A DNA stretch of 64,000 bases, taken from Bdellovibrionales bacterium CG10_big_fil_rev_8_21_14_0_10_45_34. Lineage in GTDB: Bacteria; Bdellovibrionota; Bdellovibrionia; Bdellovibrionales; 1-14-0-10-45-34. Where the stretch lies: the NCBI GenBank assembly GCA_002778785.1, contig PEZS01000001.1, positions 13,894-77,893 of the forward strand. Direction: 5' to 3'. A model generated the notes under the pieces. It saw only the letters and a program-made list of their open reading frames with translations. It had not been told where the DNA came from and did not search any database. Positions 46,115-62,573 of this stretch are shown here, piece by piece (the stretch's first letter is position 1; each line of letters begins with the position of its first letter). Position numbers and translations under genes: made by a program.

Positions 46115-46585
46115 TCACAAACTCACCTCGACTTGGTTTTCTGATTCACAATCGGAGCACTGACCATAAAAAACTACGGAAAGGTTAGCTTTAGAAAAAT
46201 CATGAATCTCTTTAAGAGACTTTTCGATTCGGCGGAACAGTTTTGGATCACCAATTTTCACATCTCCACAGCCCTTACAAATGTAGTAGTGATGGACCTT
46301 GTTCCCAAAAATAAACTGATAGGCCTTTCCGGTCTTTGGAAGATACAATTCTTGAATCAGATCAAGCGAGATTAACTTTTCGATATTTCTATAAATTGTT
46401 GTGCGATCAACCTCGGGCAGGTTGCTTGCAACATACTCTTGGATTTCTTTGCTACTTACGTGCCTTCTTTGATTATCAAGGAAGAGCTGAATCAAAAGCT
46501 TCTTCGACGGAGTCATGCGAAGTCCTTTTGATTTCAAATATGCAAACAGTTCTTCTTGTTTCTTCACAGCTATTCCTTTATCCAC
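46115..46585 (-). CDS. Fur-family metalloregulator
   Basis: GLRMTP, TTIYRN, HHYYICKGCG, YGQCSDC. Confidence 0.9.
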   Translation of the reverse strand: MDKGIAVKKQEELFAYLKSKGLRMTPSKKLLIQLFLDNQRRHVSSKEIQEYVASNLPEVDRTTIYRNIEKLISLDLIQELYLPKTGKAYQFIFGNKVHHYYICKGCGDVKIGDPKLFRRIEKSLKEIHDFSKANLSVVFYGQCSDCESENQVEVSL

Positions 46586-47256
46586 ATCGTCAGGTGGCCA
46601 CTTTCAATATGTCGACTCTCAACCATTTTCCAATCATTTGGTACGCGACCTCCGTAACCGTGGAAAGTAATGAGAACTTTTCCAGGCTTAGCCCATGCAA
46701 GTTGCCGAAAGACCTCTGAGGTGTACCGTGCATAGTTCCTCACCGCAAAATCAATATTGTTTTCAATTGTTCCAGATTCGTCATCGGCGATTTGCTCCTG
46801 GAATGGGTTGTAAAGGTAGTAAATGTCAAAAAGACTCCAATTTAGGTCAAGCATGTTCATTTGAACAATCGAAATATCTTTGAAGCCGTTGACATCAACA
46901 ATGTGGTTCGCAATCTCGACGAAGTTTTCGCGTTGCTCGATGCCAAACACTTCATAGTTTGTCAAAATTCTTAGCAGAAAGCAGAGCTTTCCAACTCCGC
47001 AGCCGATATCGATTAAAGACCTTCGATCCATCGGTCTAATCCATTCTGAAATCTGTCGAGCCACATCGATCGAAGACCAATGAATGGCTGATTGTCGTTG
47101 ATAGTAGGGGGGGAAAATTAGATCAAACTCTGAATCCTCAACAGGTTCTCCCGAGCGGAGCTTTTCGATGATTCCACTTTCCAAGAGGGGCTCGTTGGAA
47201 AACGTTTTAGAAAATCGGTCAAGATTTCGAGATAGACTATGCATCCAAAACCTCAA
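46570..47256 (-). CDS. Class I SAM-dependent methyltransferase
   Basis: LIDIGCGVGK motif I, YLYNPF. Confidence 0.85.
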   Translation of the reverse strand: MRFWMHSLSRNLDRFSKTFSNEPLLESGIIEKLRSGEPVEDSEFDLIFPPYYQRQSAIHWSSIDVARQISEWIRPMDRRSLIDIGCGVGKLCFLLRILTNYEVFGIEQRENFVEIANHIVDVNGFKDISIVQMNMLDLNWSLFDIYYLYNPFQEQIADDESGTIENNIDFAVRNYARYTSEVFRQLAWAKPGKVLITFHGYGGRVPNDWKMVESRHIESGHLTMWIKE

Positions 47257-47671
47257 TTTCCTGATCCAATTGATGAACTAGCGAATCCATTCCATTTTGG
47301 TTTCGACATTCCGATGCACGCACCAAAGTTGCCAAGTCTTTCTCATCGTTCATTTCAACAACAATGATCCATCCCCCGTTGAAAGGGTCGTCGTTCAAAA
47401 TTCCTGGATCCGTGAAAAGACTCTCATTTACTTCGATTAGTGTGCCCGAGACCGGACTAACGAAATCATGCGTAAATTTCACGGACTCAATTGAAAATAA
47501 ACTCTCGCCCTTGTGGACCAGCTTTCCGATGTCAGGTAAATCTAAAAAAAGAACTTCACCAAGCCAACTCAAGCGAAAGTCTGTCAGTCCAATGGATACT
47601 AAATTTTCATCGACCCGGATCCATTCACCATTGTGAGAAAGATAGAGATTTTCTGAGACAGTAAAATTCAT
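47237..47671 (-). CDS. Glycine cleavage H-like lipoyl-carrier protein
   Basis: HxEW-like start, IGLTDF, ESVK (lipoyl Lys), SPVSG..IEVN, N.DPF..GW. Confidence 0.85.
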   Translation of the reverse strand: MNFTVSENLYLSHNGEWIRVDENLVSIGLTDFRLSWLGEVLFLDLPDIGKLVHKGESLFSIESVKFTHDFVSPVSGTLIEVNESLFTDPGILNDDPFNGGWIIVVEMNDEKDLATLVRASECRNQNGMDSLVHQLDQEIEVLDA

Positions 47672-47989: not shown

Positions 47990-48169
47990 TTACTTAGTTT
48001 TCCCAACAAGCTGCTGATTAACCGAAAGCATTCGAATTAGGCCCGTCCTCTTGCTCGAAAATGCCTTTTGTTGAATGTCTGTAAGAACCGAAACAAATAC
48101 GCCAGTAATCACCAAAATTCCAATCAGTCGAAATAGAATTGGAAATACTCTAAATACTATTGAATCCAT
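47990..48169 (-). CDS. 59-aa small membrane protein (not in ORF track)
   Basis: SD GGAGG then MDSIVFRVFPILFRLIGILVITGVFVSVLTDIQQKAFSSKRTGLIRMLSVNQQLVGKTK. Confidence 0.6.
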   Translation of the reverse strand: MDSIVFRVFPILFRLIGILVITGVFVSVLTDIQQKAFSSKRTGLIRMLSVNQQLVGKTK

Positions 48170-48236: not shown

Positions 48237-49283
48237 TCATTTCTTTAGGGTGAACGAGCTGCCCGTATATTCGTTTTTAAATGAGTTTTGATCGATTTTG
48301 ATGGCCTTGTCATTCCAGCCGAAGGTCATCGGTTCTCTGAGATCGAAAATACGAGCTAAAAGAAATGTTCCTTGAGCCACCTTCTGCTCTAGTTGTGTTG
48401 GGCTTATCAATAGGTCCGAGATCGGGCGCGCATGCCGCTCAACTTCCGATCTCATACCTCCTAAATCAGAGAGCACAGGGACTCCATCGAACGCTAGGCT
48501 CGAAATCCAATAGAGATCCCGCTCACCAATCAGTTTAAAAAAGTAAGGGACATCGCCGCGCTCAAGTTGAACTCGCTCTTCAAGCAATAAATCTTCAATA
48601 CTAATTTCGCCAGCAAGATGGGCGAGGTAGTATTTGGTATTTCTTAAAATCACTCGAATCGGAACGGTGGAATTTATCTTCTCGCTAAGTAGTGATCGTA
48701 ATGGATCTATGTTTTGAAAAACAATGTCGAAGAGATCGAAGTACCCAGCTAAAATTCTTCGTTTCTGATCCGCCGTAAACGAAGCGAGTCCGCTCCCGAT
48801 GTTTTGTGCGCCCGATCTTTCAAACGACAGGTCTTTGTATGGTAAGAGCGCTGTTTCGCTGGGAAGCAATAAGTTGGTTAGAGCAACCTCAGCATCTATG
48901 ACTTGAAGTCCGCCTTTTGTAGGGACCAAATTATGTTTATGAAGATCACGTATTCCAAAAATATATGAATACGCAAGAATGACACCAAATGAATAAAAGT
49001 GGGGGTCATCTATCTCGATGCCTTCAGGGGAAACTATTTCTCGCGAAATGCCTTCCCAATCATTGATCCGTTGGATTTCTAAATTAAATAAGTATGACGA
49101 TAGTGTTCTTGAATCATTACGACCACTTTTTTCAAAGAACGGTGCTAAGACGCTATCATTTCCAAAAAATAGTTGTTCCCAAAAAATGGAGCGAGGCTTC
49201 CGATACCAAGGACCGGAAGCCTGCTCAAAGCGTTGCACGCTTTTGCCGAAGTTATGTTTATCCGCGACAAAAGCAGATCGCAT
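48237..49283 (-). CDS. Stand-alone LanM-type dehydratase/kinase domain (DUF4135-like), no LanC cyclase
   Basis: DKHNFGKSV, YRKPRS, YIFGIRDLHKHNL, IDAE, IRVILRNTKYY, EERVQLERGDVPYF match class II lanthipeptide synthetase N-terminal motifs. Confidence 0.8.
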   Translation of the reverse strand: MRSAFVADKHNFGKSVQRFEQASGPWYRKPRSIFWEQLFFGNDSVLAPFFEKSGRNDSRTLSSYLFNLEIQRINDWEGISREIVSPEGIEIDDPHFYSFGVILAYSYIFGIRDLHKHNLVPTKGGLQVIDAEVALTNLLLPSETALLPYKDLSFERSGAQNIGSGLASFTADQKRRILAGYFDLFDIVFQNIDPLRSLLSEKINSTVPIRVILRNTKYYLAHLAGEISIEDLLLEERVQLERGDVPYFFKLIGERDLYWISSLAFDGVPVLSDLGGMRSEVERHARPISDLLISPTQLEQKVAQGTFLLARIFDLREPMTFGWNDKAIKIDQNSFKNEYTGSSFTLKK

Positions 49284-49357
49284 TAGTGACCACTTTCTCC
49301 GCCTTCAAAGGCCTCCGACTGAGTGATCAACTCGTCGAGATTAATTTCGATTGGCAT
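49283..49357 (-). CDS. Putative 24-aa precursor peptide MPIEINLDELITQSEAFEGGESGH (not in ORF track)
   Basis: SD GAAGGGAG 5 nt before ATG; start overlaps 3' end of the kinase gene; TAA overlaps ATG of the dehydratase (TAATG). Confidence 0.75.
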   Translation of the reverse strand: MPIEINLDELITQSEAFEGGESGH

Positions 49358-51128
49358 AGGTACTCCCTTCGTTTGATCCGCGATGACCAGAAATTTGGGC
49401 ATCATCAGACCTGTTTAAAATTGAAATCTGCATATTTGCTAAATTGGATTTAGATATTAGGCGAATGCGATTTCGTCTTGCTTCCGAGATAACGGGATCA
49501 CTATCAGCCATGCCCGTTATCAAACGAGCCTCTAGTGCGAGATCGTAGCGCGCAATAAGATCGATACCATTTGTGTGATCGGTCTTTAAGTCATAGTCCA
49601 TGAAGTAGACTCTCGAACCAAAGTCTCCAGGTCCATGCTGCGCCATCCATAATTCAAATTCTTGCGCCGAATATAGGTTCACTCTCTTAACGCCACTGTC
49701 CTCGGGAATCTTTAATTGCCAGCACTGGTGAATTAGCGGATCGTCGTCAAGAATCACGACAGTCTGAGTTTTATCTATTTCGATAGAAGGCAGTTCGCTT
49801 GCCTTCGCCGTTACCGGGAACTCTAATTTGACAGTTGTTCCGCTGCCAATCTCTGAATCGATCTCGATTTTTCCGCCAAGTGTTTGAATCGTAGAGAGTG
49901 CGTGCGATAAACCTAGCCCTGTCCCATTCGGTTTTCCAAAAGTCGCGCCCTCTTTCATCAATAGAGGCAAACGATCTTTAGGAATTCCACATCCTGTATC
50001 TTTTATGGATATAGCGGCTTGATTCTTGGTTAGTTGGACAGAAACCTCAATTTTGCCTTTAGCAGAGATAGATTCTCCTGCATTGTCTAAAATATTTCTA
50101 AACATCGACTCGATTTCCGTTGAGATCCCCTTAATAGGTATTTGAGAGACATCGTTATGTAGAAAAGCTAGCTGCACGCGCTCTGGAAGCCGTTCTTTGA
50201 AATCAGTGATTGTTCTACTCAGAATTAAATGAATATCTACGTCGTGTGCCGTTTCAACCGCACGAACTTTACGGGCTGTAAGAAGGGCTTGCGACGACAT
50301 CAAAACATTATTGACGCCTTCAATAAGTCTAAATTTTTGTTCTTCGGAAATATCTAAAACGGAAATTCTCATCTGAAGTGAAGCGAGTGGTCCTTTTATA
50401 TTGTGAGCAAGATGTTCGGCCATCTTGAGGCGACCAAGATCAAAGCTTTGTTTAGCAGCGGACTCTTCCAGAATTTTAATCTGACTGATGAATGAAAGCA
50501 GGGATGCGTCTAAGTTTTTAACTTCTTCAATGTTGGAACTCTCAAACTGAGCGTGATATTCGTCGGGTCCGGGAGATTGCCCATAAGAATTAGACAGCCA
50601 GGTGGCGCGATTTTCTATAGGCGAAGTAATTTCCCGAATTGTTTTAAAAAGCTTCGACCTAATCAAAAGATAACAACCAGACAGAAAAATAAAGAACGTA
50701 GTCGATAGTAAAATGCTAGAAAATATTACTCCGGCGAGATCAAGCTCAATGTGAATTTCGAGATTTTGGTTTGATGGGAGAGCGAACTTCTCATTTGCAA
50801 AAGACGACAACAATCCAAACTTTTGAAGTTGACCAGAGTGCGCAATAAGTTGCCCATCAACATAAATATCTGAGCGCATGTCTATATCTTGAGTCGCTCG
50901 CCACGCCTCCGTCAGTCGCGCAGCCTCGCGATCAATATCAGCCATGCTCTGCGCTGTAATTCCTGCGGTAGCAATCTCTTTTAAATGCGAGGTTATAAGA
51001 TTGATTGCTTTGTCTTTAATTTGGGTAACTGAAAAATATGTGTTTAGACTAAGGACGAGAAAGCCCAGCGCGGCTGTAACCACAAAAACGAAATTCATCT
51101 GTGACTGAAGACGCGTGGCTAATTTCAA
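49341..51128 (-). CDS. Membrane hybrid sensor histidine kinase with C-terminal receiver-like domain
   Basis: Two TMs, AHNIKGPL H-box, NILDNA, DTGCGI, GTGLGL; VVILDDD..FMDYDL..NGIDLI receiver. Confidence 0.9.
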   Translation of the reverse strand: MKLATRLQSQMNFVFVVTAALGFLVLSLNTYFSVTQIKDKAINLITSHLKEIATAGITAQSMADIDREAARLTEAWRATQDIDMRSDIYVDGQLIAHSGQLQKFGLLSSFANEKFALPSNQNLEIHIELDLAGVIFSSILLSTTFFIFLSGCYLLIRSKLFKTIREITSPIENRATWLSNSYGQSPGPDEYHAQFESSNIEEVKNLDASLLSFISQIKILEESAAKQSFDLGRLKMAEHLAHNIKGPLASLQMRISVLDISEEQKFRLIEGVNNVLMSSQALLTARKVRAVETAHDVDIHLILSRTITDFKERLPERVQLAFLHNDVSQIPIKGISTEIESMFRNILDNAGESISAKGKIEVSVQLTKNQAAISIKDTGCGIPKDRLPLLMKEGATFGKPNGTGLGLSHALSTIQTLGGKIEIDSEIGSGTTVKLEFPVTAKASELPSIEIDKTQTVVILDDDPLIHQCWQLKIPEDSGVKRVNLYSAQEFELWMAQHGPGDFGSRVYFMDYDLKTDHTNGIDLIARYDLALEARLITGMADSDPVISEARRNRIRLISKSNLANMQISILNRSDDAQISGHRGSNEGSTYANRN

Positions 51129-52633
51129 TCAGCCCTCATCTCTATCGTCTCAAATAGCATCGTATGGTAGCCCATGGGATGAGACGGTATGCGTTTCACC
51201 TTCTGGCTCCACAGTCCAGAGGCATCAGTGCCAAACATAAGAGGAATTGTAGTGTGATGTCTTAAGGCTAAGTTTTGGGTTTCTTTGTAGAGCGAGATTC
51301 GTTTCTGCGTGTCGAATTCTCTCATTGCCTCATCAATTTTTTTATCTACCGCTGGATCACTAATGTGAAAGTAATTTGCGTCGTAGTTTGCTCGGAAATA
51401 TGTCAGAACCGAGATGCCGTCTGGATAGTCCATACCCTTTCTCGCGACGACAGATTCCGAAATTTTGCCAAAAAGACGTCTTAGTTTTTCTGCCTTTGAC
51501 ATGGGATTTAAGGTGATGGAAATTTTATCGTGAGTCCAAACCCGCGTTAGATATTTAATAATTTTTACTTCTAATTCGACATCCGGGTCGTAGTCTAACT
51601 TGAACGAAATTGATTTACCTGAGTAGGACGTCTTTTCGACTGGGTTGACATCAGACTTTTCCATTTCGCCAGGAAAACCCTTGGGGATAAAACCGTAGGC
51701 CGGTTTAAATATTGGGTGTGCAACTTCCCGAATTAAATCTTCCGAGCTTACCTTTGAAGCTAAATATTTTCTGGCTGCTAAATCTACATACTTTGGATTT
51801 AGAACAATATAAGTTTCGCTAGTGAGAACGGTTGGAACAGCTCCCCATGATTTTGCTTCTAAAGCAGCTTGATCCTTCGAACTTACTGGATCGTTATCCA
51901 GAGTATCCGTCTCATCCTTCATTGCAAGCTCTACCGGATTCTCGGAGCTTCCAAAAAAGATAATTTTCTCTGGCGGGTTGATACTATCGAAAGGGTCTTT
52001 TCTCCATTTTGTTAGCTTCAGTCGATTGTTTTCGGAAGATTCAAGTTTATATGGCCCGCTGAATCCGTCTGGCAGTTCCTTTGGGTTGCTCAAAGATTTT
52101 AGGTTAAATATTGCACAATCAGAAACGGCCATGTGCTTGATGAATAGAACGGATGGAAAAGAGAGCATAAACTCTACTTCGTCGTCCGATATGACTTTGA
52201 TACCAAGATCATTTAGGTTCTTAGTTTTGGCGAAAGTTTTTGCGCCTTTGATGTAGTCAATATCCGCGCCAATTGCAGCTCCGACAAGAAACAATCGTGC
52301 GAAACTTAACTGAACATTTTTTGCAGTGATGCGATCTCCGTTAGAAAATGTGGCGGGCTTTAGTTTAAATTTATAGCTCGTGCGGTCCGCTGATTCTGTC
52401 CACGTATCGACAAGGTCTACTAAGACATCGCCGGTTGGGTTATAACGAAACAATCCTCGATATAACTGTGAATTTATCATCATTGAATAGGCATCTTCCA
52501 TCGCATGCGGGTCTAATTTAATGTCAACCTTCGGGTGGTGAATTTTCAATTCCAATGGTTCCTTTTCTTTCTTCGTACATCCGAACGAAAGTATTGCCCC
52601 GCACAGAAGTGCCCTAAAGAATCGAGCGTCCAT
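51125..52633 (-). CDS. Family-5 (oligopeptide-type) extracellular solute-binding lipoprotein, no ABC permease/ATPase adjacent
   Basis: Lipobox SFGC, LDPH, LYRGLFRY, W..S.D..SY.FKLK, FSNG..ITA, SGPYKL. Confidence 0.88.
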   Translation of the reverse strand: MDARFFRALLCGAILSFGCTKKEKEPLELKIHHPKVDIKLDPHAMEDAYSMMINSQLYRGLFRYNPTGDVLVDLVDTWTESADRTSYKFKLKPATFSNGDRITAKNVQLSFARLFLVGAAIGADIDYIKGAKTFAKTKNLNDLGIKVISDDEVEFMLSFPSVLFIKHMAVSDCAIFNLKSLSNPKELPDGFSGPYKLESSENNRLKLTKWRKDPFDSINPPEKIIFFGSSENPVELAMKDETDTLDNDPVSSKDQAALEAKSWGAVPTVLTSETYIVLNPKYVDLAARKYLASKVSSEDLIREVAHPIFKPAYGFIPKGFPGEMEKSDVNPVEKTSYSGKSISFKLDYDPDVELEVKIIKYLTRVWTHDKISITLNPMSKAEKLRRLFGKISESVVARKGMDYPDGISVLTYFRANYDANYFHISDPAVDKKIDEAMREFDTQKRISLYKETQNLALRHHTTIPLMFGTDASGLWSQKVKRIPSHPMGYHTMLFETIEMRAD

Positions 52634-53792
52634 CTTTAGATGCCTTTCTAGTTCGAGTCTGAGTTAGAAGGTAAACAATTGCACAGAGGGCGACTGAGGC
52701 TCTCAGTATCCCCTCAGAGAGAAGGGATACCTTGGGCGCGCCGAGACCTACCAAGAATTCTCCCGTAGCGAAAATCGCGACCATAATGCTCGAGCGGGCG
52801 CTCGAAACTCCGCCCAGCTTGTTGTCCGGCGTATCATGTTGAATGTGACCGGAGATTCTGTGGAAGATTGTCCAAAACGCGCAATCGCGCACAAAACAAA
52901 TTAAGAGCGATACAGAACCTGGACCCGGAACGACTCCAAGGAGGATGCAGCCGAGTCCAAGGACAGAAAAAAATGGTATGCTGCTGATCTTGTTCGTTAC
53001 ACTGCGCTCTAAAAATCCAGAAACCCAAACTGCTAGCCCGTAACTTACCGTGTATATTCCAATCCAGCTCTGATCGTTACCGGCGATCCTGGATGTGTAA
53101 GCCACCGTGCCCATCATTGAGGTAACCAAAATCATATCTAAAGTTATGGCCTGACGGTTGATGGTAAAAAGATCACGAAATTTTTGAGACCACTTTGAAA
53201 TCGTCTTAGTTGCCTGTGCAAATTCAATGTTCGGGATCATAAATGCGATAATTCCATTTACGATAAACGAGACGGCATCGACGATGATTGCAAAGCGTAA
53301 ATCGAAGTTGCTAATAATGAACCAAGCAAGGAGTCCTGAGAAAAGGGTCGCACCTTGGGTCGCTTTGTTAAACCAAATGGCCTGTCGGGCGTTGCCCGAA
53401 TAGGTATCATCGCTAAAGAATTTATTAATTCGGTTTCGACTGCCAATTTGAAACGAAACAACGATAGACCGCGTAACGCACAGGATTGCCAGCAGCAGAT
53501 AGTTCGTGTTGGCTTCTTGCCAAACGAAGTACAATGCCACCGACGCCATGGAGGCGAATATTTCTGCAAACGCAATGAGCCGCCTCGGCGGAATAACATC
53601 TGTAAGGTGTCCCCACGCAGCCGTAAAGAGCATTGGAATGAATCGTTGAAGCGCAAGTATCAGCGTGGCGTCGGCCAAACTGAAGTTTGCTTTCAGCATG
53701 AATGCAACTAATGCCAGATTAAAAGCAAAAGTTCCAACTGATGAAACAAGAATCCCTGAGTAGAACATTACGGCAATATTTCTAATGTTCAT
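52614..53792 (-). CDS. MFS transporter (exporter-like)
   Basis: ~12 hydrophobic segments, GHLTDVIPPRRL motif-A-like, VDAVSFIV; start MNIRN overlaps the regulator stop (ATGA). Confidence 0.85.
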   Translation of the reverse strand: MNIRNIAVMFYSGILVSSVGTFAFNLALVAFMLKANFSLADATLILALQRFIPMLFTAAWGHLTDVIPPRRLIAFAEIFASMASVALYFVWQEANTNYLLLAILCVTRSIVVSFQIGSRNRINKFFSDDTYSGNARQAIWFNKATQGATLFSGLLAWFIISNFDLRFAIIVDAVSFIVNGIIAFMIPNIEFAQATKTISKWSQKFRDLFTINRQAITLDMILVTSMMGTVAYTSRIAGNDQSWIGIYTVSYGLAVWVSGFLERSVTNKISSIPFFSVLGLGCILLGVVPGPGSVSLLICFVRDCAFWTIFHRISGHIQHDTPDNKLGGVSSARSSIMVAIFATGEFLVGLGAPKVSLLSEGILRASVALCAIVYLLTQTRTRKASKDGRSIL

Positions 53793-54800
53793 ATTGCCTC
53801 TGTTCCTTCGTGAGAATCGCACAATTCTTTTTTTCGCTTATAGTAATACGACTTAGATATTTTCAACTTATCGATAATGGCGGCATTGTCTCCGCCCAAA
53901 AGAGCGAGCGCCCGCTCAAAGAACACTTTTTCCATCCAGTCCAAACTTAGCCGGTAATATTGAGGGTTAACGTCGGAAGGTATGTGCGGCAAAAGGGTTG
54001 CTGGAAGCACGGTCACTTTTCCAGACGCTTGCAATTCACTTAGCATGAGATGCTCTGGAAGGAGCTGCGGCTTATTCGTTCCTCGAATCAATATGCACGC
54101 GCGTTCTATCGTATTCTGAAGCTCCCGGATATTGCCAGGCCAAGAATGTTGTTCTAATAACCGCTTTGCATCTCTTGAGATCGTGATTCCAGGAATGGAG
54201 CGTCTAGCCATGCATTGAGCAAGAAATAATATATCGTCTTGTCGATCGCGGAGAGGTGGCGACTTCAAAACAATCTGATTTAATCTGAAATATAGGTCTT
54301 CACGAAATCGACCTTGAGCCACAAGCTCCTCAAGTTTTTTATTTGTTGCCGCGATCACGCGAATGTTTAGCGGAATATTTTTAGTTGATCCAACAGGGGT
54401 GACGACCTTCTCTTGCAATACGCGAAGAAGCTTCACTTGCATCTCTGGAGGAAGCTCACCAATTTCATCCAAAAATATATCTCCGCCGTTTGCCGCGACG
54501 AACTTGCCTACCTAATCCTTTACTGCACCCGTAAATGCCCCACGCACATGGCCAAATAGTTCACTTTCAAAAAGGTTTTGAGAAATAGCTCCGCAGTTCA
54601 CCGCCACGAACGGGCGAGTGGGATCGTTCTCTTGCAGATTGAGAGTTCTGGCTATCAATTCCTTTCCCGTTCCATTTTCGCCGAGGATTAAGACAAAAGC
54701 TCTGGTGTTTTTAAACTTCGAAATTTCTGCTCTCAACTTAATAGTTATCGGAGAAATGCCCATGATCTCGTATCGTGCGGCACTTTTGAAATTGCGTCGC
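53789..54800 (-). pseudogene. Sigma-54-dependent activator, N-terminally truncated with an in-frame TAG at 54512-54514
   Basis: GENGTGKE, ESELFGHVRGAFTGAVKD*VGKF..IFLDEIGEL, WPGNIREL; both ORF pieces are in the same frame. Confidence 0.85.
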
Positions 54801-54802
54801 GC

Positions 54803-56689
54803 GTGCTTACTTCCGACCAGATTGCCAGTTTGCTCTATCAGCAATGGAACCCATCCAGGCGTTTACCGTTTAAATCGTACAACCCGGAAGAAGTTCGACA
54901 AAGCCTCTTATTTTCCGATGTCGGGATTGACCTTAATGGCTTTGCGATAGGTAGCACTTATTTTAGAGTTGTTTCGCTAAAATCCCTTCCTGACCAGACT
55001 TATTCTACAATGGCATCGACGCTTCGTGCCTTTCCATTTAAATCTCGGCTCTATGTGACCGTTCACGTGCCAGATCAAATGAAAGAAATTGAATCGCTTC
55101 AAACCCAGCGACGTATTGCCTACTCGATGGTCGCGGGAAAGCGCACGGGAGTGTCCGACTTAGAAAGCAACGCGAAGTTTCAAGATCTTGAATCTCTTTT
55201 GGAGCAGATGATCGCTCAAGGTCAAAAGGTGTTTCAGGTATCGGTAAACGTATTGCTGCAAAGTGAAAGTGAGTCTGAGCTAGAAATACAACTTGATACG
55301 GTTCTTTCAAAGTTTCGAGAGTTGGCAGGTGCGGAAGGATTAACAGAAACTCTAGCGGCCTTTGACATATTTTCCCAAGTAGCTCTTCCAAACGCGCGTT
55401 CCAAAGAGCGATCAAAGAAAATTAAAACCGGAAACCTTTGTGATTTGCTTCCGCTCTACGGAGCTTGGCCCGGTCACTCACAGCCGAGTATTTTACTTAA
55501 GTCTCGTTCTGGAAGCATATTGACCTTCAATCCCTTTGATTCCTCGATGTCGAACAGCAATCAGCTAATTTCCGGCGCCAGCGGCTCCGGCAAATCGGTG
55601 ATGGTGAATATTTTGATTCTGCAAATGCTGAAGGAAAACCCGAAAGTATTCTTTATTGATATTGGCGGATCGTATCGCAAATTAGCAGAGAACCTTGGAG
55701 GCCAGTATGTCGATTTGGGAGTTAACGACCATTTGTCGATCAATCCGTTCGACTTACTTGCCGGTGAAACCAAGCCTTCATCCCACAAAATTAAGTTTTT
55801 GGTGGGTCTTATTGAGTTGATGACAAAGGAAGATGGTGTTGACCGGCTCCCTCGACTCATTCGAGCTGAGATTGAAGACGCGATTCAGACCGTCTATGCT
55901 AGCAAGACAAAGCCACGTCTTTCAGACCTTCGAGACCTTCTTATCGCACATCCAGACCAAAGCATTCGCACTTACGGCAAAATTTTGGGCCCTTGGTGCG
56001 GAAACACACCTTACGGAAAGTTTTTAGATCGGGAGACTACGATAAGTTTGACTAGCGACGTAATTGCTTTCGATCTCAAGAACCTGGAGTCTTTCGCGGA
56101 CCTCCAAAACATATGTCTGTATGTAATCACTGATCTTGTTTGGAGAGAAGTTCAGAAAGATCGCTCGAAGATGAAATTTATTGTTTTCGACGAATGCTGG
56201 AAACTCCTCAAAGACGAAGCGGGTCTCGTTTTTATCGAGGAGATCTTCAGAACGGTTCGAAAATATAACTGTTCTGCAATTGCGATTAGCCAAGATCTCT
56301 TGGATTTTTTGAATTCAAAAATTTCATCCGCGTTGTTACCAAACTGCGCGATGAAATGGATTCTCATGCAAAGTCAGAATGACTTTGCCAAAATGCAGGA
56401 AGCTCTTGGGCTTAATGAGAATGAGCTGCAGTTGATTCAGTCGTTACGACAGCAAAAGGGCGAATATTCAGAAGCCTTTTTAATCGCTGGGCAAGAACGC
56501 CATACAGTTGCAGTCATAGAGCCGACACCGCTCGAATTGTGGATTGCCACGACTGATCCGAAGGATCTTTCCGCGCTCGAAGTCTTTAAGGTTGAGAATC
56601 CAACGCTTTCGCATTTCGATTGCTTAAGATCTCTATCGAAAAAATATCCAAGAGGCATCGCGGCCCACCAGCAAGCGGTGAAAAAATGA
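54803..56689 (+). CDS. VirB4/TraC-like conjugative ATPase, probably N-terminally truncated
   Basis: GASGSGKS Walker A, FIDIGGSY, INPFD, FIVFDECW, RTVRKY; no room for promoter/N-terminus upstream. Confidence 0.85.
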   Translation: MLTSDQIASLLYQQWNPSRRLPFKSYNPEEVRQSLLFSDVGIDLNGFAIGSTYFRVVSLKSLPDQTYSTMASTLRAFPFKSRLYVTVHVPDQMKEIESLQTQRRIAYSMVAGKRTGVSDLESNAKFQDLESLLEQMIAQGQKVFQVSVNVLLQSESESELEIQLDTVLSKFRELAGAEGLTETLAAFDIFSQVALPNARSKERSKKIKTGNLCDLLPLYGAWPGHSQPSILLKSRSGSILTFNPFDSSMSNSNQLISGASGSGKSVMVNILILQMLKENPKVFFIDIGGSYRKLAENLGGQYVDLGVNDHLSINPFDLLAGETKPSSHKIKFLVGLIELMTKEDGVDRLPRLIRAEIEDAIQTVYASKTKPRLSDLRDLLIAHPDQSIRTYGKILGPWCGNTPYGKFLDRETTISLTSDVIAFDLKNLESFADLQNICLYVITDLVWREVQKDRSKMKFIVFDECWKLLKDEAGLVFIEEIFRTVRKYNCSAIAISQDLLDFLNSKISSALLPNCAMKWILMQSQNDFAKMQEALGLNENELQLIQSLRQQKGEYSEAFLIAGQERHTVAVIEPTPLELWIATTDPKDLSALEVFKVENPTLSHFDCLRSLSKKYPRGIAAHQQAVKK

Positions 56690-57372
56690 AAAAATTTGTA
56701 GTTAGAGTAGTTTTGCTTCAATTCTTATTAATGCCATCAGCTCGGGCCGACATGTTCGGCGGTGATCTTGTGATACTGGCCCAAATTTTATCGAACGCCG
56801 TTCAGCAACTGGTTCAACTCAAAAATATTCTTGAAAATGGTAAGGACAATTTGGATCTCATTAAGGATATCAATCGTGGTATCAATGACTCCCTCAATCT
56901 AATTAAAACGATAAGCCCGAATACTGATCCTGGGCTCTACAAAGAATGGGAAAAAGTCTCTCAGGCCCTTTCGGAATTAGAAAGGCTCTATGGAGTTCCA
57001 GTCGAATCTCACGACCGGAAAGTTCAGGATGATACGGACAAGAGCGTTGCCGAGGCTATCGCCTTTAATAACTCAATCTACAAATATACAAAAACAATCG
57101 ACGACATCGGCGAGATTATCAAAGATCAGAGCCACGCGGTTTCACCTGGTGGTGCTGCTAAATTAACTGCGCAGGCATTAGGTGTTTTGATTCATATTCA
57201 AAACGAGGGACTTCGGGCGCAAGCTACCGGACTGAAACTTCAAGCTCAGGCAATGATGGTCCAAAATCGTAAGGACAAGGATCAAACCCGTCAAATGGTT
57301 GCGACCGCCGAAAGTCTTCAGCAGGCCCTCGGCACGCAGAAGCCGAAGTTTACCTTACCTCGGTTCGAATAA
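56686..57372 (+). CDS. Secreted VirB5/TrbJ-like conjugative transfer protein
   Basis: Signal peptide (SARA-D), Q-rich helical body, position between VirB4 and VirB6-like genes. Confidence 0.55.
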   Translation: MKKFVVRVVLLQFLLMPSARADMFGGDLVILAQILSNAVQQLVQLKNILENGKDNLDLIKDINRGINDSLNLIKTISPNTDPGLYKEWEKVSQALSELERLYGVPVESHDRKVQDDTDKSVAEAIAFNNSIYKYTKTIDDIGEIIKDQSHAVSPGGAAKLTAQALGVLIHIQNEGLRAQATGLKLQAQAMMVQNRKDKDQTRQMVATAESLQQALGTQKPKFTLPRFE

Positions 57373-57408
57373 ATCTCATTAGTCTTAGCATTCTAAAAAA
57401 GTAGGTTT

Positions 57409-58356
57409 ATGGATATTTCCTGGGTTTCAGCCGAAGCGAAGCAGATTCACACGTTCTTTGTTTCCATTTTCTATCTCGTTGCAACAGTGCTCATTTTGCT
57501 TGGCGTGGTGATCGAGTATTTCAAGATTCCACTTGGCAATATGCCTGCATTTTCACAGCTCATTGGACGAGCGTTGATCGCGACAATTCTTTTAGTTGCA
57601 TACCCGGAAATCTCAAATACCATTTGCGCGCTTGCCGACGCAATTGCGGAACGTCTTGGTGATGTGAATAACTACAGCAATGTTTTATCAACAGCCGGTG
57701 AAGCTTTGAAACAGCACTCTTGGTCCTGGACTTCAATCGGCGATTCGCTGCTCTCCGTCGTATCTTACCTCGCCTATTTCATTTTATACATCACGGTCTA
57801 TTTTTTCGATGCAGCCATTATTTACTGTCTTGTTCTTCTTTATATATTTTCACCAATCATGATCGTCTTTTTTATTCTTCCGCAAACTGCCGGGCTCACA
57901 AGCGGTCTATTTAGGGCCTTATGTGAGATAGCAACTTGGAAAATAGTTTGGTGTGTTCTTGGGACTCTGCTCTGGAGTACGGCGCTGAATAGTTTTAAAC
58001 ACTCAGGTGAGAGCAATTTTATTACGCTTCTCGCTCTCACCCTGATGCTGACATTCTCCATTATTCTAACGCCAATTGTAGCCAAACAACTCATATCTGG
58101 TGCCCTGTCCTCAGTAGCGAGCCAAACCGCTGGTCTCGCGGCAAACGCAATGACGGCGGGAGCCCTTTCAACCGGATTTATAGCTGGTGCCTCTAGAAAA
58201 TTTTCGAAAAAAGCGTTCGTCGGTACGGCTCGAATGGCCGCTAAAGCCGCAAAAGATACGGCGAAGACTGTGAGGAAAACTCGGAATCGATTTTCTCAGA
58301 AAATGACCAACAACAATATTCCCGAAGATCCAATGAACGACTGTCCTCAAGCCTAA
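57409..58356 (+). CDS. VirB6/TrbL-like polytopic membrane protein
   Basis: 5-6 TMs with Ala/Gly-rich basic tail; T4SS context. Confidence 0.65.
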   Translation: MDISWVSAEAKQIHTFFVSIFYLVATVLILLGVVIEYFKIPLGNMPAFSQLIGRALIATILLVAYPEISNTICALADAIAERLGDVNNYSNVLSTAGEALKQHSWSWTSIGDSLLSVVSYLAYFILYITVYFFDAAIIYCLVLLYIFSPIMIVFFILPQTAGLTSGLFRALCEIATWKIVWCVLGTLLWSTALNSFKHSGESNFITLLALTLMLTFSIILTPIVAKQLISGALSSVASQTAGLAANAMTAGALSTGFIAGASRKFSKKAFVGTARMAAKAAKDTAKTVRKTRNRFSQKMTNNNIPEDPMNDCPQA

Positions 58357-58397
58357 TTATCAAAAGAGACGCATAAAAATATTTAGAGGGAGTTCTT

Positions 58398-58934
58398 ATG
58401 AAGTTTTCATCGGCGTGGGCGCGAATCGCTGCGCTAAATGTTACGCTTAAACTGGCAACTGTCACGTTGGCCGCAATCGTTCTTGTTCAAATGGTGATTC
58501 TACTTCAGTTGGCGCTACGAAATCCTATAGTAGTTGAACGAGGATGTTTTTCCAGAGTGCTTCCTGCCCGCGCGGCGGGGGTAACGTCGGAGGAGATTAG
58601 CGCGTTTATTAACGAAGCTATTCCTATGCGTTTTGATACAAACTTGGTTCCTAAGGAAGGGTATCTTGCAATATCCGAGACGATAAGTCGCGAAAAGGAA
58701 CAATCTGCGCTCAAACAGCGGCAGATCTCCCAGCGAGTATTGATTTCCGAAGCTAAGGTTGACGGCCAAAATGTTCAAGTAGCAATCGACCGCGTGATGT
58801 CTGTCGGCAAGGTGAAGTCAATTTTGCCACTTGTCTTAAAAGTTGAAGTTCAGACAACCAATCGAAGTGAGTCAAACCCATACGGCTTAATTCTCAGTTC
58901 CCTTAGTGCAATTGAAGATAAGGAGGCAAAGTGA
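58398..58934 (+). CDS. VirB8/TraE-like single-TM T4SS protein
   Basis: N-terminal TM, terminal R..SNPYGL motif. Confidence 0.65.
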   Translation: MKFSSAWARIAALNVTLKLATVTLAAIVLVQMVILLQLALRNPIVVERGCFSRVLPARAAGVTSEEISAFINEAIPMRFDTNLVPKEGYLAISETISREKEQSALKQRQISQRVLISEAKVDGQNVQVAIDRVMSVGKVKSILPLVLKVEVQTTNRSESNPYGLILSSLSAIEDKEAK

Positions 58935-59302
58935 TTACATCGCTGATTTTTCTTTTCCTCAGTTTCATTGCTCCAGTTTGGGCAAACTCGGTAAAGACAG
59001 TGAGGCTTTGCGAAAAAGGTGTTCTTACCGCCTATGTGTCGCCGAGGGGAACCGTTCTTGATTTTCCGACCGAGCCAGAAAAGGTTGTGCTCGGTTCGAA
59101 AAACACGTTTTCAATTGAATACATTAGAAGTGATTTGACGATCTCGCCGTTGTCTCTTCAGGCTCGGTCGAACTTATTCGTTTATGTTCAAGGCCGACGC
59201 TTTGTCATTGATCTCATCACGTCTCAAGCAAATGGCGCCGCCACTTATTATATTCGCGATTGCGTCGAAGATCGCGTGAAAGTAAAAAAAAGTGGAAAAT
59301 AG
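58931..59302 (+). CDS. Short VirB9/TrbG-like periplasmic T4SS protein
   Basis: Signal peptide, TVLDFP..P..VVLG, SNLFV. Confidence 0.55.
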   Translation: MITSLIFLFLSFIAPVWANSVKTVRLCEKGVLTAYVSPRGTVLDFPTEPEKVVLGSKNTFSIEYIRSDLTISPLSLQARSNLFVYVQGRRFVIDLITSQANGAATYYIRDCVEDRVKVKKSGK

Positions 59303-60176
59303 CGAACAATCAGTAGAGATAGTTCAGGACCCTCATGTCGGAAACCGCTTCGGGTTTCAACATGACCGTGCGTCCATTCCTAAACATAGAATCGTATTCT
59401 GCATTTGTGCGACATTAGCATGCGTCATAATCGTCATGTTATTTCAAGGACCAGCACAACCGAACGTGGACGACATAAAAGAAATTCGCGCGCCTGATCC
59501 AGGTCAACTGACAGATCAGACAAATAAAATTCATTTTGATGACTACTCCGCCGAGTCTGAAAGTGCTTCGCTAAAACAAAAAGCTCAAGTCCGCAGGGTT
59601 ACTGTTTCTAAACTTCCCGGACTTCAGAAGTTCGAACGATCTCGTGGAAAAGCAATTCCGCCAGGGATGACGTTAAAAGCTATTCTCGTAAATGGTGCCT
59701 CCAACGGAACCGTTAAAGTTGAAGTGACTGAATCACTCCTGTTGCAAGGCGAGACACTCGTTCCCGAAGGCGCCGTTCTCATCGGCGTCGGGCAATCAAC
59801 CGAAGACCGTTTATTCATCCGTTTCAATACCCTCGTCTTTAAAGATGGAACCACTGAGAACGTTCAAGCTCAAGCTATTGATACTGATGATCGGATTGCT
59901 GGTCTTAAGGGTTCTCGCATTGGCAGATATGCAATTAAGTATGGTGCGGCTGTCGGACTTAACTTTGCGGGAGGTCTGGCTCAAGGGCTTCAAGAAAAGG
60001 AAGTCATTAATCAACAGGCAGTAACGAAAACCGACACGAAGAATGCGCTCTTGAACGGAGCGAGCCGGGCAACTCTTGAGATGGCGAATGAAACGATGAC
60101 GAACTTGAGAAATCAAACGCCAGTGATCGAGGTCAAAGCAGGTAAAGAAGTCATCGTCATGTTCGAAGGCACGTAA
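59292..60176 (+). CDS. VirB10/TrbI/TraB-like T4SS protein
   Basis: TM anchor, IPPG..LKAIL, VPEGAVLIG, RLFIRFNTLV, PVIEVKAG. Confidence 0.75.
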   Translation: MENSEQSVEIVQDPHVGNRFGFQHDRASIPKHRIVFCICATLACVIIVMLFQGPAQPNVDDIKEIRAPDPGQLTDQTNKIHFDDYSAESESASLKQKAQVRRVTVSKLPGLQKFERSRGKAIPPGMTLKAILVNGASNGTVKVEVTESLLLQGETLVPEGAVLIGVGQSTEDRLFIRFNTLVFKDGTTENVQAQAIDTDDRIAGLKGSRIGRYAIKYGAAVGLNFAGGLAQGLQEKEVINQQAVTKTDTKNALLNGASRATLEMANETMTNLRNQTPVIEVKAGKEVIVMFEGT

Positions 60177-60225
60177 AAGATTACTCCAACCATAAGTCGC
60201 ATATTCATATCACCAAAGGATACAA

Positions 60226-61683
60226 ATGCAAAAGCCTGATAATTTTGAAGTACGAATTAATATCTTTGCAAAGAACGTTAGACTCTTACTTTCGCCTATT
60301 GAAGAACTCGCAGTTGGTATTAGAGCTAACACAGTTCCCTGGGATATTTGCGCGGGTTGGACATTTTTTGCAATGATCGTCATTGTCTTTAAAATCGACT
60401 ACCTATTTCTCTCTTTTGTAGGTCTGAGAAATTTGTACCCCTACCATCCGCTGTTGTATCGGATCTATGCGTTCTGCTTTCTCTCCTCCGCCTTTTGGAT
60501 CTGGGCATGGGCACAAGTAAAGCGAAAAAGAGATAAACTTTCCGTCTTAACTGACGCATTTAAAAACGCGGGACTCCAATCGCGAATCGGTAGGATACCT
60601 CAGTTTATCGCCGACTACGCACTTGATCCGACAATTCGGAAAATGCGCGTGACGAATGCCGGGTTCCCACTGATGAAGTTCGCAGAGCAAAGCAAATTTC
60701 TTGAATCCGAGCTTGGAATTTTTATTGATGAAATAAAAGAAGATCGAGAGAAACGAGCAATTGACCTTATTTACTCGCACTATCCGATGGTGACCGAGGT
60801 CAAATATTCGCCGACTATAACTAAAAGGCCGTTGGAGTTTCTCGTAGGCCAAACTCGTGCTCAAAATGTCTTTGCGTCATTTCGAAACTTTCCGCACATT
60901 TTGGTGGCTGGTCAGACCGGCGGCGGTAAATCCACTTTTCTAAGGCAACTCATCGTTCATACCTATCTAAATGCAAAGTCTTCAAGATTTTTGCTGATTG
61001 ATCTCAAGGGCGGCTTAGAGTTTTCAATTTTCGAAAACTACAGTCCATTCACCGTGGTGCCGAATGTCCGTGCGGCAGTCAAAGAACTTAAGACCATGAA
61101 CAAAATGTTAGAGGACCGAATGAAGGTCCTTAAAGAAAATAAATGTAAGGACGTGGATGCCTTTATGAGAAAGAAAGACAAAGCCGAAAACAAAGTGAGT
61201 CTTGATCGTCAATTTGTAGTTGTGGACGAAGCGGCTGAAATGTTTCTTGCTGGACATCATGCAAAAGCAAACGAAATTCAAGAAGCTCGCGCAATCTTAA
61301 GTCGTATAGCACGTCAAGGTCGGGCTGTTGGGGTCCATCTTATCGTTGCGACCCAACGACCTGATAGCAAATCCCTTGATCCTCAGGTTAAAGCAAATTT
61401 GCCAGGAGTTATCTGTTTTCAGATGATTAACGATGCGTCCAGTATAGCTGTCTTAGGAAACGGAAGAGCAACAGATCTTCCTAAGGTTCCCGGCAGAGCA
61501 ATTTGGAAAAACGGAATTGAAATGCTTGAAGTGCAAACACCTTTTTTGAGTGAAGACGACGCGACAAAGCTTTTAGGTGAGCCGGATAAAAAGGAAATAA
61601 AAACAGATGAGAGTCCCGACGTAAACCCAGTTGAGTCAGCGCAAGTGCCTAACAAAGAAGATTATAGAAATCCGGAGGAGTGA
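60226..61683 (+). CDS. FtsK/SpoIIIE-family ATPase (TcpA-like coupling protein candidate)
   Basis: Two N-terminal TMs, PHILVAGQTGGGKST, IDLKGGLEF, VVVDE, RQGRAVGVHLIVATQRP, PGRA. Confidence 0.88.
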   Translation: MQKPDNFEVRINIFAKNVRLLLSPIEELAVGIRANTVPWDICAGWTFFAMIVIVFKIDYLFLSFVGLRNLYPYHPLLYRIYAFCFLSSAFWIWAWAQVKRKRDKLSVLTDAFKNAGLQSRIGRIPQFIADYALDPTIRKMRVTNAGFPLMKFAEQSKFLESELGIFIDEIKEDREKRAIDLIYSHYPMVTEVKYSPTITKRPLEFLVGQTRAQNVFASFRNFPHILVAGQTGGGKSTFLRQLIVHTYLNAKSSRFLLIDLKGGLEFSIFENYSPFTVVPNVRAAVKELKTMNKMLEDRMKVLKENKCKDVDAFMRKKDKAENKVSLDRQFVVVDEAAEMFLAGHHAKANEIQEARAILSRIARQGRAVGVHLIVATQRPDSKSLDPQVKANLPGVICFQMINDASSIAVLGNGRATDLPKVPGRAIWKNGIEMLEVQTPFLSEDDATKLLGEPDKKEIKTDESPDVNPVESAQVPNKEDYRNPEE

Positions 61684-62573
61684 ACTTGGATAAAATAGCA
61701 CGTCAAAGACGACCGAAGTGCAATCTCGTAGACCGAGACGATGACATTTTTCATTTTCTATGGAAGTGGAAGTGCGCCTCGACATCCACGCTAGCTCGAA
61801 AATTTTTTAAGAATGGAAGTCGTGACGCCGCATACAAGAGGCTCGTTCTGTTGCATAGGGATAAGTATATTGATATCGAAGTAATCGAAAAGAATAAGTA
61901 TGCTTTGGTTTGGACGCTGAGGGAAAAAGGTTACCTTCATATAGAGCAAAGAATTAAAAATTTAGCGGTGTCAGGGTTCGCCTCTGAGTCTTTGTTTCAC
62001 GATCATTTGGTGTCAGCATTTCATCTCGGAGAGTGGCTTAAGTATCCTCCCGAATTCACCAGAGTGTTCACCGAACAACAACTACGTCGGGTGGCTCCAG
62101 ACAACTGGCCCGACTGGCTGCCTCATTCTCAAGAACATCGACCCGACGGCTACTCGATGTATTTCGTCGGAACAAAACAAGTTGTTGTGGCCTTCGAGGT
62201 CGAGTTGAATGTGAAAGCTCATGCCAGGTACGATACAGTAGTTGAGTTCTATGATAACAAAAAAAATATTAGCTTTGTATTTTGGCTCGTAGAATCGAAA
62301 AGTGACTTGGCTTCAATTAAAAAAGCTTTTCAAAGCTTTGGCGTTCGAGACTGGTCCAAGCATCACTTTATTTATCTCGATGATTTTAGAAAAAATGGTT
62401 GGGATGCTAAGTTCGTCGAAGGGAAACATCATAGAACCACGCCTGCCAAATTTCTAAATCCGAACGGGGTCTCCAGACTCTCTCTAGAGTCTCCAGTACG
62501 GGAGACAGGCCACTTATTAAATCTTGAAAAAAAGCCAATGAACTTAAGCCCTTCCGTCGATATCAAAAAATAG
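61680..62573 (+). CDS. Replication-relaxation (Replic_Relax)-like protein, candidate relaxase
   Basis: N-terminal wHTH (RDDDIF..RL..L), HDH, RPDG, VAFEVEL..K...RY. Confidence 0.7.
   Translation: MNLDKIARQRRPKCNLVDRDDDIFHFLWKWKCASTSTLARKFFKNGSRDAAYKRLVLLHRDKYIDIEVIEKNKYALVWTLREKGYLHIEQRIKNLAVSGFASESLFHDHLVSAFHLGEWLKYPPEFTRVFTEQQLRRVAPDNWPDWLPHSQEHRPDGYSMYFVGTKQVVVAFEVELNVKAHARYDTVVEFYDNKKNISFVFWLVESKSDLASIKKAFQSFGVRDWSKHHFIYLDDFRKNGWDAKFVEGKHHRTTPAKFLNPNGVSRLSLESPVRETGHLLNLEKKPMNLSPSVDIKK

Follow-up and report, generated by a model that had tools for sequence, protein, structure and literature searches.

A conserved, unannotated 24-codon gene beside a cyclase-less LanM-type dehydratase core in a Bdellovibrionales genome, and its predicted part in a peptide-signalling cassette

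Does the short gap between a histidine kinase gene and a gene for a lantibiotic-type modifying enzyme in a Bdellovibrionales genome hold a gene of its own, and what would the product of such a gene do? The locus lies in a 64,000-nucleotide stretch of contig PEZS01000001.1 (positions 13,894 to 77,893) of Bdellovibrionales bacterium CG10_big_fil_rev_8_21_14_0_10_45_34, which we call the window. An original prediction, made from the letters of the window and a list of its open reading frames (ORFs), had placed in this gap a 24-residue precursor peptide with a strong Shine-Dalgarno (SD) sequence, fitting exactly between kinase and enzyme with overlaps on both sides. All of these features are confirmed, and they lie on the minus strand, which the otherwise correct description of the ORF had left unstated. 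The gene (49283..49357, minus strand) has its ATG at 49357-49355 and its TAA at 49285-49283, and its 24 codons plus stop encode MPIEINLDELITQSEAFEGGESGH. The SD sequence GAAGGGAG (49363..49370, minus strand) is separated from the ATG by a 5-nt spacer, the 5' end of the ORF overlaps the end of the kinase ORF (49341..51128, minus strand) by 17 nt, and the stop codon has one base in common with the ATG of the enzyme gene (48237..49283, minus strand), in the sequence TAATG. The mechanical ORF list also allows a longer in-frame start at ATG 49405, giving 40 residues; this start is disfavoured because in relatives the SD-preceded start lies 4-7 residues before the I-N-L motif described below.

Enzyme homologues were found in 8 of 61 related genomes searched (the window's own genome included), and a scan at one genome per species gave 79 enzyme loci. 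The working set for the comparisons below (n = 24) consists of the window and the 23 closest loci (L015-L036 and L085), all from metagenome-assembled genomes or isolates of Bdellovibrionota. In 22/24 loci a script found an equivalent ORF of 23-28 codons, ending between -12 and +11 nt from the enzyme start; a GGAGG-like SD sequence precedes each of these 22 peptide genes, and all but one start with ATG. Another (L035) was recognised by eye, which brings the total to 23/24 loci and 19 distinct peptides, and at the 24th locus (L026), where the contig ends 163 nt upstream of the enzyme gene, a family-like tail half (…VAEEFELGSLG) remains. The frame upstream of the enzyme in L026 resembles the end of a mobile-element gene.

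The 19 distinct peptides share the motif I-[N/D]-L-x-x-[L/I]-E, followed by an alternating acidic stretch. Within the motif, I occupies position 1 in 18/19 peptides, N or D position 2 in 19/19, L position 3 in 19/19, L or I position 6 in 19/19, and E position 7 in 17/19. Counted from the motif Ile, a serine stands at position 18 in 17/19, with two exceptions, both shorter peptides, that have it at position 17 or 16, and only 2-4 residues follow this conserved Ser in any member of the family. The leader is strongly acidic throughout, with 4-8 D/E and 0-1 K/R. In MPIEINLDELITQSEAFEGGESGH the leader motif is I5-N6-L7..L10 and the conserved serine is Ser22, which is the predicted site of modification. 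The family has the general layout of precursors of RiPPs (peptides made on the ribosome and modified after translation), namely a small gene adjoining an enzyme gene and a product that combines a conserved motif for recognition with a varying core and a modifiable residue that is likewise conserved.

Purifying selection acts on the protein sequence of the peptide. The enzyme genes of L018 and L020 are 78% identical at the DNA level; between the peptide genes of the two loci, 12 codons differ synonymously and 2 non-synonymously, with 14/16 base changes at third positions, and L019, L021 and L024 encode identical peptides, yet their enzyme genes are only 83-87% identical. Hence the alignment of small ORFs upstream of homologous enzymes, which had been set beforehand as a check of the prediction, came out in its favour, with the leader and the Ser conserved and the changes mostly synonymous. 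The peptide frame is open in 20/20 distinct sequences and other frames in 0-9/20, a comparison to be read with the fact that the ORFs had already been selected beforehand. Six family peptides were looked up in a collection of 15 billion proteins and none was present, so the gene goes uncalled everywhere. That it falls below gene-caller length and is unannotated everywhere is also what one would see of a non-functional ORF, either a spacer for translational coupling or a frame open by chance between two genes. Such a frame would hardly keep its motif, its length, the position of its Ser and its SD sequence in 23/24 loci with mainly synonymous changes, nor would it persist in a divergent gene order behind a sigma-54 promoter of its own, as it does in L028, and we regard this explanation as very improbable. 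The 24-codon minus-strand ORF is a real, conserved and unannotated gene. A lake-water metagenome contig (X5; low depth, covering 49271-49421) differs from the window by a single C>G at position 49331 (plus strand), which we read as a change from Glu9 to Asp in the peptide. Four sequencing runs were compared with this region, all of them DNA contigs; no RNA run was listed for it.

The conserved family bears out the original view of the peptide as a leader with a short tail beside a modifying enzyme, and likewise its choice of the tail serine, Ser22, as a candidate site. No lanthionine can form in the window peptide because it contains no Cys, as had been pointed out; 16/19 distinct family peptides are also free of Cys, and the peptide of the window thus lacks what defines a LanA precursor, a core Cys to pair with a dehydrated Ser or Thr. 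Three further points found no support in the relatives. The Gly-Gly motif is present at +15/+16 in only 3/19 peptides (Gly at +16 in 11/19); a crosslink between the terminal His and dehydroalanine is not conserved chemistry, because ten different residues (F, G, N, Y, C, H, E, T, W, Q) are found at the C-terminal position; and Thr12 and Ser14, offered as additional modification sites, correspond mostly to Ala. In agreement with the prediction that no dedicated C39 peptidase is present, PF03412 was not found in the window's own genome, which is 100% complete, in a search that was positive in 7/14 control genomes.

Some loci of the working set lie on contigs with a common assembly prefix (L018/L020, L025/L030 and L031/L034), and from this shared prefix one genome may carry two parallel cassettes; the peptide tails differ within L025/L030 and within L031/L034. 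On a 455-kb contig, L024 has only a 214-aa kinase fragment, the peptide, which is identical to those of L019 and L021, and the enzyme, and looks like the remnant of a cassette.

What, then, is the enzyme whose gene the peptide gene joins? The 348-aa protein (48237..49283, minus strand) matches Pfam PF13575 (DUF4135) with 49.4 bits against a cut-off of 29 [E = 4.9e-13, residues 7-137, profile positions 54-176 of 378]; in a search of its own genome, with neighbours in frame included, the score is 51.2 bits. The profile for full-length LanM (TIGR03897) gives 35.5 bits against a cut-off of 304. Pfam finds no LANC_like domain in the protein, and a separate LanC-type cyclase (PF05147) was not found in the genome by a search that carries no information, its control being positive in 0/14 genomes. 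An AlphaFold (AF2) model built from 21 family sequences has a predicted local distance difference test (pLDDT) score of 93.1 and a predicted template modelling (pTM) score of 0.92, and its best solved matches in Foldseek are CylM (E = 6.6e-9) and LicM2 (E = 6.9e-8). By VIA, CylM has a Z of 16.8 (285 residues, 3.7 Å) and LicM2 one of 15.6, with PI3K/PIKK kinases at about 10-11. The alignment of the family profile with CylM (5DZT) begins at CylM residue ~249, and the enzyme is thus a kinase-like core without the first ~245 residues and the cyclase of CylM.

In CylM, as mutagenesis showed, phosphorylation depends on K274, D347, H349, N352 and D364, and phosphate elimination on D252, H254, R506 and T512, according to the part of the CylM study that we draw on (PMC4550811). 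The profile alignment to 5DZT places K29, D113, H115, N118 and D130 of the enzyme at the phosphorylation positions, and D8, H10, R210 and T216 at those of D252, H254, R506 and T512. All nine catalytic columns are invariant or at least 90% conserved in the 21 family sequences. The 348-aa protein is a DUF4135 member that is predicted to act like the dehydratase domain of a LanM, and it does not qualify as a LanM, failing on the cyclase, on size and on a substrate with Cys. In its family the stand-alone form is the rule: clustering at 90% identity gives 95 clusters, with names that go no further than 'hypothetical', 'DUF4135' or 'lantibiotic modifying enzyme', clustering at 50% identity gives 360 representatives at E <= 1e-30, and the best 150 of these 360 are mostly 320-390 aa long, with a few shorter fragments and a maximum of 423 aa.

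Because all four elimination residues of CylM are kept, dehydroalanine is favoured over phosphoserine, and full dehydration is predicted. A kinase-only course, ending with phosphoserine at position 22 in the manner of the phosphothreonine in phospeptin, does have precedents, since EmbM, which is LanM-like and has no cyclase, yields a diphosphorylated peptide according to the available text of a review (review; Paoli et al.), and salivaricin 10 retains phosphothreonine. The same review text reports that EmbM lacks the elimination residues and ends at phosphothreonine, and it is these residues (D8, H10, R210 and T216) that are kept here and are invariant or at least 90% conserved in the 21 sequences; phosphoserine as the end product appears unlikely to us.

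LanM proteins (CylM, 5DZT; LicM2, 6ST5) have the lipid-kinase-like fold and the nine catalytic residues of our enzyme, and their substrates, like the window peptide, have an acidic leader followed by Ser. They are, however, ~900-1000 aa long, compared with 348 aa for the enzyme, which starts near CylM residue ~245 and is devoid of a LanC-like cyclase, and the window substrate has no Cys and hence no route to a lanthionine. PoyF (polytheonamide) and EmbM (phospeptin) are presented in the accessible descriptions as stand-alone LanM-type enzymes acting on Cys-free ribosomal peptides: PoyF makes a single dehydration in polytheonamide (review), and the EmbA precursor has no Cys and has a kinase and a regulator encoded nearby (review; Paoli et al.). 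Their substrates carry long NHLP or Nif11 leaders, as opposed to the precursors of 23-28 aa found here, and in those descriptions, by which alone we compared them, neither comes with a cassette of transporter, OppA-like binding protein, hybrid kinase and sigma-54 activator. CcaM (LanMbC; dehydrazole/carnazolamide) demonstrates, in the sections available, that a DUF4135 protein can make dehydroalanines with no lanthionine (PMC10676384). It is ~1015 aa long, fused to a required class III-type cyclase, leader-independent, azole-dependent and encoded beside YcaO, none of which applies here, and the network of that study, as described in those sections, left out proteins of <500 aa (PMC10676384).

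The original prediction had captured the precursor and its enzyme and had overlooked the larger unit to which both belong, a six-gene cassette that in relatives has a sigma-54 promoter, together with the loss of its regulator in the window. In order of transcription, all on the minus strand and with overlapping ends, the cassette comprises a remnant of a sigma-54 activator, a transporter of the major facilitator superfamily (MFS), a solute-binding protein (SBP), a hybrid histidine kinase, the peptide and the enzyme. The order is conserved, with homologues in the 24 loci of the enzyme in 23, the kinase in 22, the SBP in 20, the MFS transporter in 18 and the activator in 16, and most of the absences are contig ends. 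In three loci (L028, L036 and L085) the layout is divergent, with MFS-SBP-kinase on one side and peptide-enzyme on the other. Across the 24 loci we found no conserved gene 3' of the cassette and no conserved protease, immunity gene or ABC transporter.

The hybrid sensor histidine kinase (595 aa; 49341..51128, minus strand) has an H-box, a HATPase_c domain and a C-terminal receiver-like domain, and its two transmembrane segments (about 9-34 and 129-157) flank a periplasmic loop of ~95 residues, a layout found in the kinases listed. Its gene and that of the SBP overlap by 4 nt. The SBP (502 aa; 51125..52633, minus strand) belongs to family 5 (OppA-like; Pfam SBP_bac_5), and the Cys at the end of its signal sequence suggests a lipoprotein; in most of the full-length SBPs shown, the signal sequence closes with Cys-Thr, as is usual for lipoproteins. 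Its AF2 model (pLDDT 88.7) finds its best folds among peptide-bound OppA proteins, one of them from B. subtilis with a pentapeptide derived from Phr; the enterococcal pheromone receptor PrgZ is matched as well, and the matches at the sequence level are OppA and DppE. A scan of window ORFs between 27 and 63 kb detected no ABC permease. An SBP and a kinase in one operon, a periplasmic loop and no cognate permease among the ORFs scanned together make up the layout of a binding-protein-dependent sensor, and the SBP-kinase pair is kept in 20-22 of the 24 loci. The MFS transporter (402 aa; 52614..53822, minus strand; Pfam MFS_1, TIGR00900) is a predicted exporter. Directly 3' of the enzyme lies a 59-aa ORF with one transmembrane segment (47990..48169, minus strand), conserved only in the closest relative, L015 (59% identity), and its membership of the cassette is uncertain.

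Is the peptide meant to leave the cell? The strongest argument for export comes from a sister subfamily. In 12 further Bdellovibrionota loci, the gene of a sister enzyme (27-30% identity) follows an ORF with the same leader motif, in the form [IVF]-[ND]-[LMV]-x-x-[LVY]-E, and the tails of these precursors are rich in Ser and Thr. Among the long sister precursors (95-130 aa), 7/7 examined begin with Sec-type signal sequences. A Pfam scan of 11 sister loci (L059 left out) found SBP5 in 10/11 and a kinase in 10/11, flanking the enzyme, and an MFS transporter in 1/11 (L043), which is the locus whose upstream ORF is a short 27-mer with no signal sequence. A prolyl oligopeptidase is encoded 3' in three sister loci (L037, L038 and L041). 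The sister loci with a Sec-signal precursor include L037, L038, L041, L042, L055, L058 and L065, among others.

The MFS transporter and the Sec signal alternate while the SBP and the kinase stay, as would be expected of a peptide that is exported and sensed from outside; the swap itself points to the peptide as the exported species. The alternative is that the peptide never leaves the cell and serves, for example, as a modified intracellular regulator of the kinase or as a scaffold for a small metabolite, with the SBP and the kinase sensing something else, such as peptides from prey or the environment. The overlap of the kinase and peptide genes would suit it, as would the generic nature of the SBP fold and the fact that no protease or dedicated peptide exporter was identified. 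It leaves unexplained why an MFS transporter goes with a signal-less peptide and its absence with a Sec-signal precursor, and why enzyme, SBP5 and kinase stay linked across two subfamilies whose enzymes are only 27-30% identical. We judge it quite improbable. As to the exported form, the MFS transporter and the OppA-like pocket favour a short C-terminal piece as the mature product.

How the cassette would be switched on is suggested by the relatives. Their activators consist of a REC domain and a sigma-54 AAA+ domain, and a promoter of the -24/-12 type, TGGCA[CT]-N5-TxGC[AT], precedes the activator gene by 24-46 nt in 10 loci and in 3 more falls slightly within an activator ORF that was called too long; together these make up 13/13 loci with a full-length activator. 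The pattern is infrequent, with 28 matches in the 550,340 nt of loci scanned. In L028, with its divergent layout, a sigma-54 promoter stands 40 nt before the peptide ATG. Because the promoter heads an operon in which the activator comes first, the operon of the relatives encodes the activator of its own promoter.

This arrangement of an autoregulated sigma-54 operon is found in the relatives and not in the window itself. There the activator is a pseudogene (53789..54844, minus strand) with an in-frame TAG at 54514-54512, and it aligns only to residues 132-465 of its counterpart in a relative (55% identity), so that the receiver domain (~131 residues) is missing. A sigma-54 promoter scan of the window gave 36 matches at <=2 mismatches against 30.2 expected, with none at the head of the cassette, and scans for sigma-70 promoters and terminators between 47.5 and 55.2 kb gave no more than shuffled sequences. 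The remnant abuts a VirB4/TraC-like gene (54803..56689, plus strand) that is itself short of about 155-180 N-terminal residues, which suggests that one rearrangement near 54.8 kb removed the heads of both genes. The simplest such event would be a deletion spanning a divergent junction of the kind present in L055 and L058; an inversion was also considered and rejected, as the genome has no separate N-terminal VirB4 fragment. The other five genes of the cassette are intact in this genome. With its activator a pseudogene and the promoter gone, the autoinduction loop is probably open or silent here.

From the gene anatomy, the conservation and purifying selection, the fold and residues of the enzyme, the synteny, the promoter of the relatives and the complementarity of MFS transporter and Sec signal, all of which are observed, we infer a course of modification, export, capture by the SBP, signalling from kinase to activator, and autoinduction. 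The dehydratase would recognise the leader I-[N/D]-L-x-x-[L/I]-E and act on the Ser at position 18 from the motif Ile. Ser22 would be phosphorylated with ATP through K29, D113, H115, N118 and D130, and the phosphate eliminated through D8, H10, R210 and T216, leaving dehydroalanine at Ser22. The modified peptide, or a short C-terminal piece of it cut by some peptidase, would then be exported by the MFS transporter; the OppA-like lipoprotein would bind it outside the cytoplasm and signal through the hybrid kinase with its two transmembrane segments, and the kinase in turn to the receiver domain of the sigma-54 activator. Since the activator sits at the head of the operon behind the -24/-12 promoter, the circuit would in relatives switch itself on. 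Taken as a whole, the reading that we consider reasonably probable is that of an autoinducer made by the cell itself, a ribosomal peptide that is dehydrated at Ser22 and, once exported, is sensed.

Several points weigh against it. The cassette encodes no protease; a 24-mer would be an unusual cargo for an MFS transporter, which makes it necessary to assume a short fragment, and the direction of transport is only predicted. The OppA fold serves peptides in general, and opines and metals too. The hybrid kinase lacks an Hpt domain through which its own receiver could be linked to that of the activator. Dehydration is not assured either, given that EmbM, likewise LanM-like and cyclase-less, goes no further than phosphorylation. 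The paralogous cassettes L018 and L020 encode peptides that end in the same five residues, LSSAG, which sits badly with the short tail as the determinant of specificity. Finally, the copy in the window, with a TAG in its activator and with neither receiver domain nor promoter, may be decaying.

The autoinducer reading has to be set against an antimicrobial role, the classical one for LanM-type chemistry. The product could be a small antagonistic RiPP, similar to a bacteriocin or microcin, with the MFS transporter in export or immunity and the two-component system regulating production only, in the manner of LanRK in lantibiotic clusters. RiPP clusters often include kinases and transporters, and a sensor kinase and a response regulator are listed for the phospeptin cluster too, in the description available; moreover, bacteriocins are often found on mobile elements, and conjugation or type IV secretion system (T4SS) genes adjoin the cassette in 9/23 relatives and in the window. 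An antibiotic would, on the other hand, have to do with only 2-4 residues after the conserved Ser and a strongly acidic leader, in a cassette where no immunity gene, protease or ABC exporter is conserved over the 24 loci and where the partner that is conserved binds peptides and has no permease next to it. The self-activating sigma-54 layout fits signalling, though nisin is both antibiotic and inducer. On balance, we rate an antagonistic function as rather unlikely.

The autoinducer reading also has its counterparts among known systems. In the nisin and subtilin systems (LanRK) a peptide with LanM/LanB-type modification switches on its own operon by way of a two-component system. In those systems the peptide is sensed directly by the kinase, and the regulator belongs to the OmpR type; here, in a Gram-negative lineage, these parts would fall to an OppA-like lipoprotein together with a hybrid kinase and a sigma-54 activator. 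The SBP-kinase pair resembles binding-protein-dependent kinases such as LuxP-LuxQ, TorT-TorS and CBP-ChiS. Microcin C and pantocin A are also made from a tiny precursor by few enzymes, exported by an MFS transporter and relieved of their leader by unassigned peptidases; they differ in their chemistry (adenylation, or cyclisation of Glu-Glu-Asn), in being antibiotics and in having no linked sensor. The parallel to pheromone reception is PrgZ/TraC of the enterococcal pheromone plasmids, in which, according to the text consulted, a family-5 lipoprotein is the specific extracellular receptor of a short self-made peptide and is encoded on an element with conjugation genes (PMC7117660). As described there, PrgZ passes its peptide to the Opp permease for an intracellular receptor; here a membrane kinase adjoins and no permease does. 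Lantibiotic autoinduction and OppA-like pheromone receptors offer functional analogies to the cassette.

A further question is what the signal would be for. T4SS-like genes lie <=7 kb from the cassette in 9/23 relatives. The T4SS genes that neighbour the cassette in relatives are preceded by no convincing sigma-54 promoter, and hence the link between cassette and T4SS rests on adjacency only. The profile of guanine-plus-cytosine content dips slightly at 46-52 kb (0.405-0.438, compared with 0.45-0.48), which is not decisive for mobility. It is possible, and we put it forward with considerable doubt, that the cassette makes a RiPP-type pheromone of Gram-negative bacteria, with dehydration by a minimal LanM at a fixed Ser, export by the MFS transporter (in the sister loci, Sec export and trimming by prolyl oligopeptidase), capture by the OppA-like protein and readout through kinase and sigma-54, and that it travels with T4SS or conjugation genes and times the joint action of such elements or of a predator population.

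Self-made peptide signals are textbook matter in Gram-positive bacteria and rare in Gram-negatives, and to our knowledge none has been established for Bdellovibrio-like predators. The cassette is compact and directly testable, with a single peptide, a single enzyme, a pump and a receptor pair. It recurs in hundreds of enzyme clusters at 50% identity (360 at E <= 1e-30), with its key gene invisible to gene callers. If the proposed mechanism is true, enzymology would gain a useful minimal LanM dehydratase with a ruler-like rule for its leader, small dehydro-peptides would form a new class of signals, and group behaviour or gene transfer in predatory bacteria would become easier to approach. Genome mining that filters by enzyme length (>=500 aa in the dehydrazole study, going by its available sections) and by ORF length misses the whole family. 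A full-text literature search, with most subscription journals and supplements outside it, found no description of the cassette or of the ~345-aa DUF4135 family; LanM-like enzymes with no cyclase are already known, and the six-gene cassette was not found in print.

The surroundings of the cassette contain further genes. A T4SS/conjugation gene set (54803-62573, plus strand) encodes VirB4', a TrbL/VirB6-like protein, a TrbI/VirB10-like protein and an FtsK-type coupling ATPase, and the sister loci L055 and L058 have a VirB2 pilin gene. On the 3' side of the cassette, genes for a GcvH-like protein, an S-adenosylmethionine (SAM)-dependent methyltransferase and a Fur-family protein (46115-47671, minus strand) have no counterparts adjoining the cassette in the three relatives checked. 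Further away, a Y-family (IMS/DinB-type) DNA polymerase (32145-33042, minus strand) is split into two overlapping ORFs of 174 and 155 aa; a frameshift or a fault in the assembly may be the cause.

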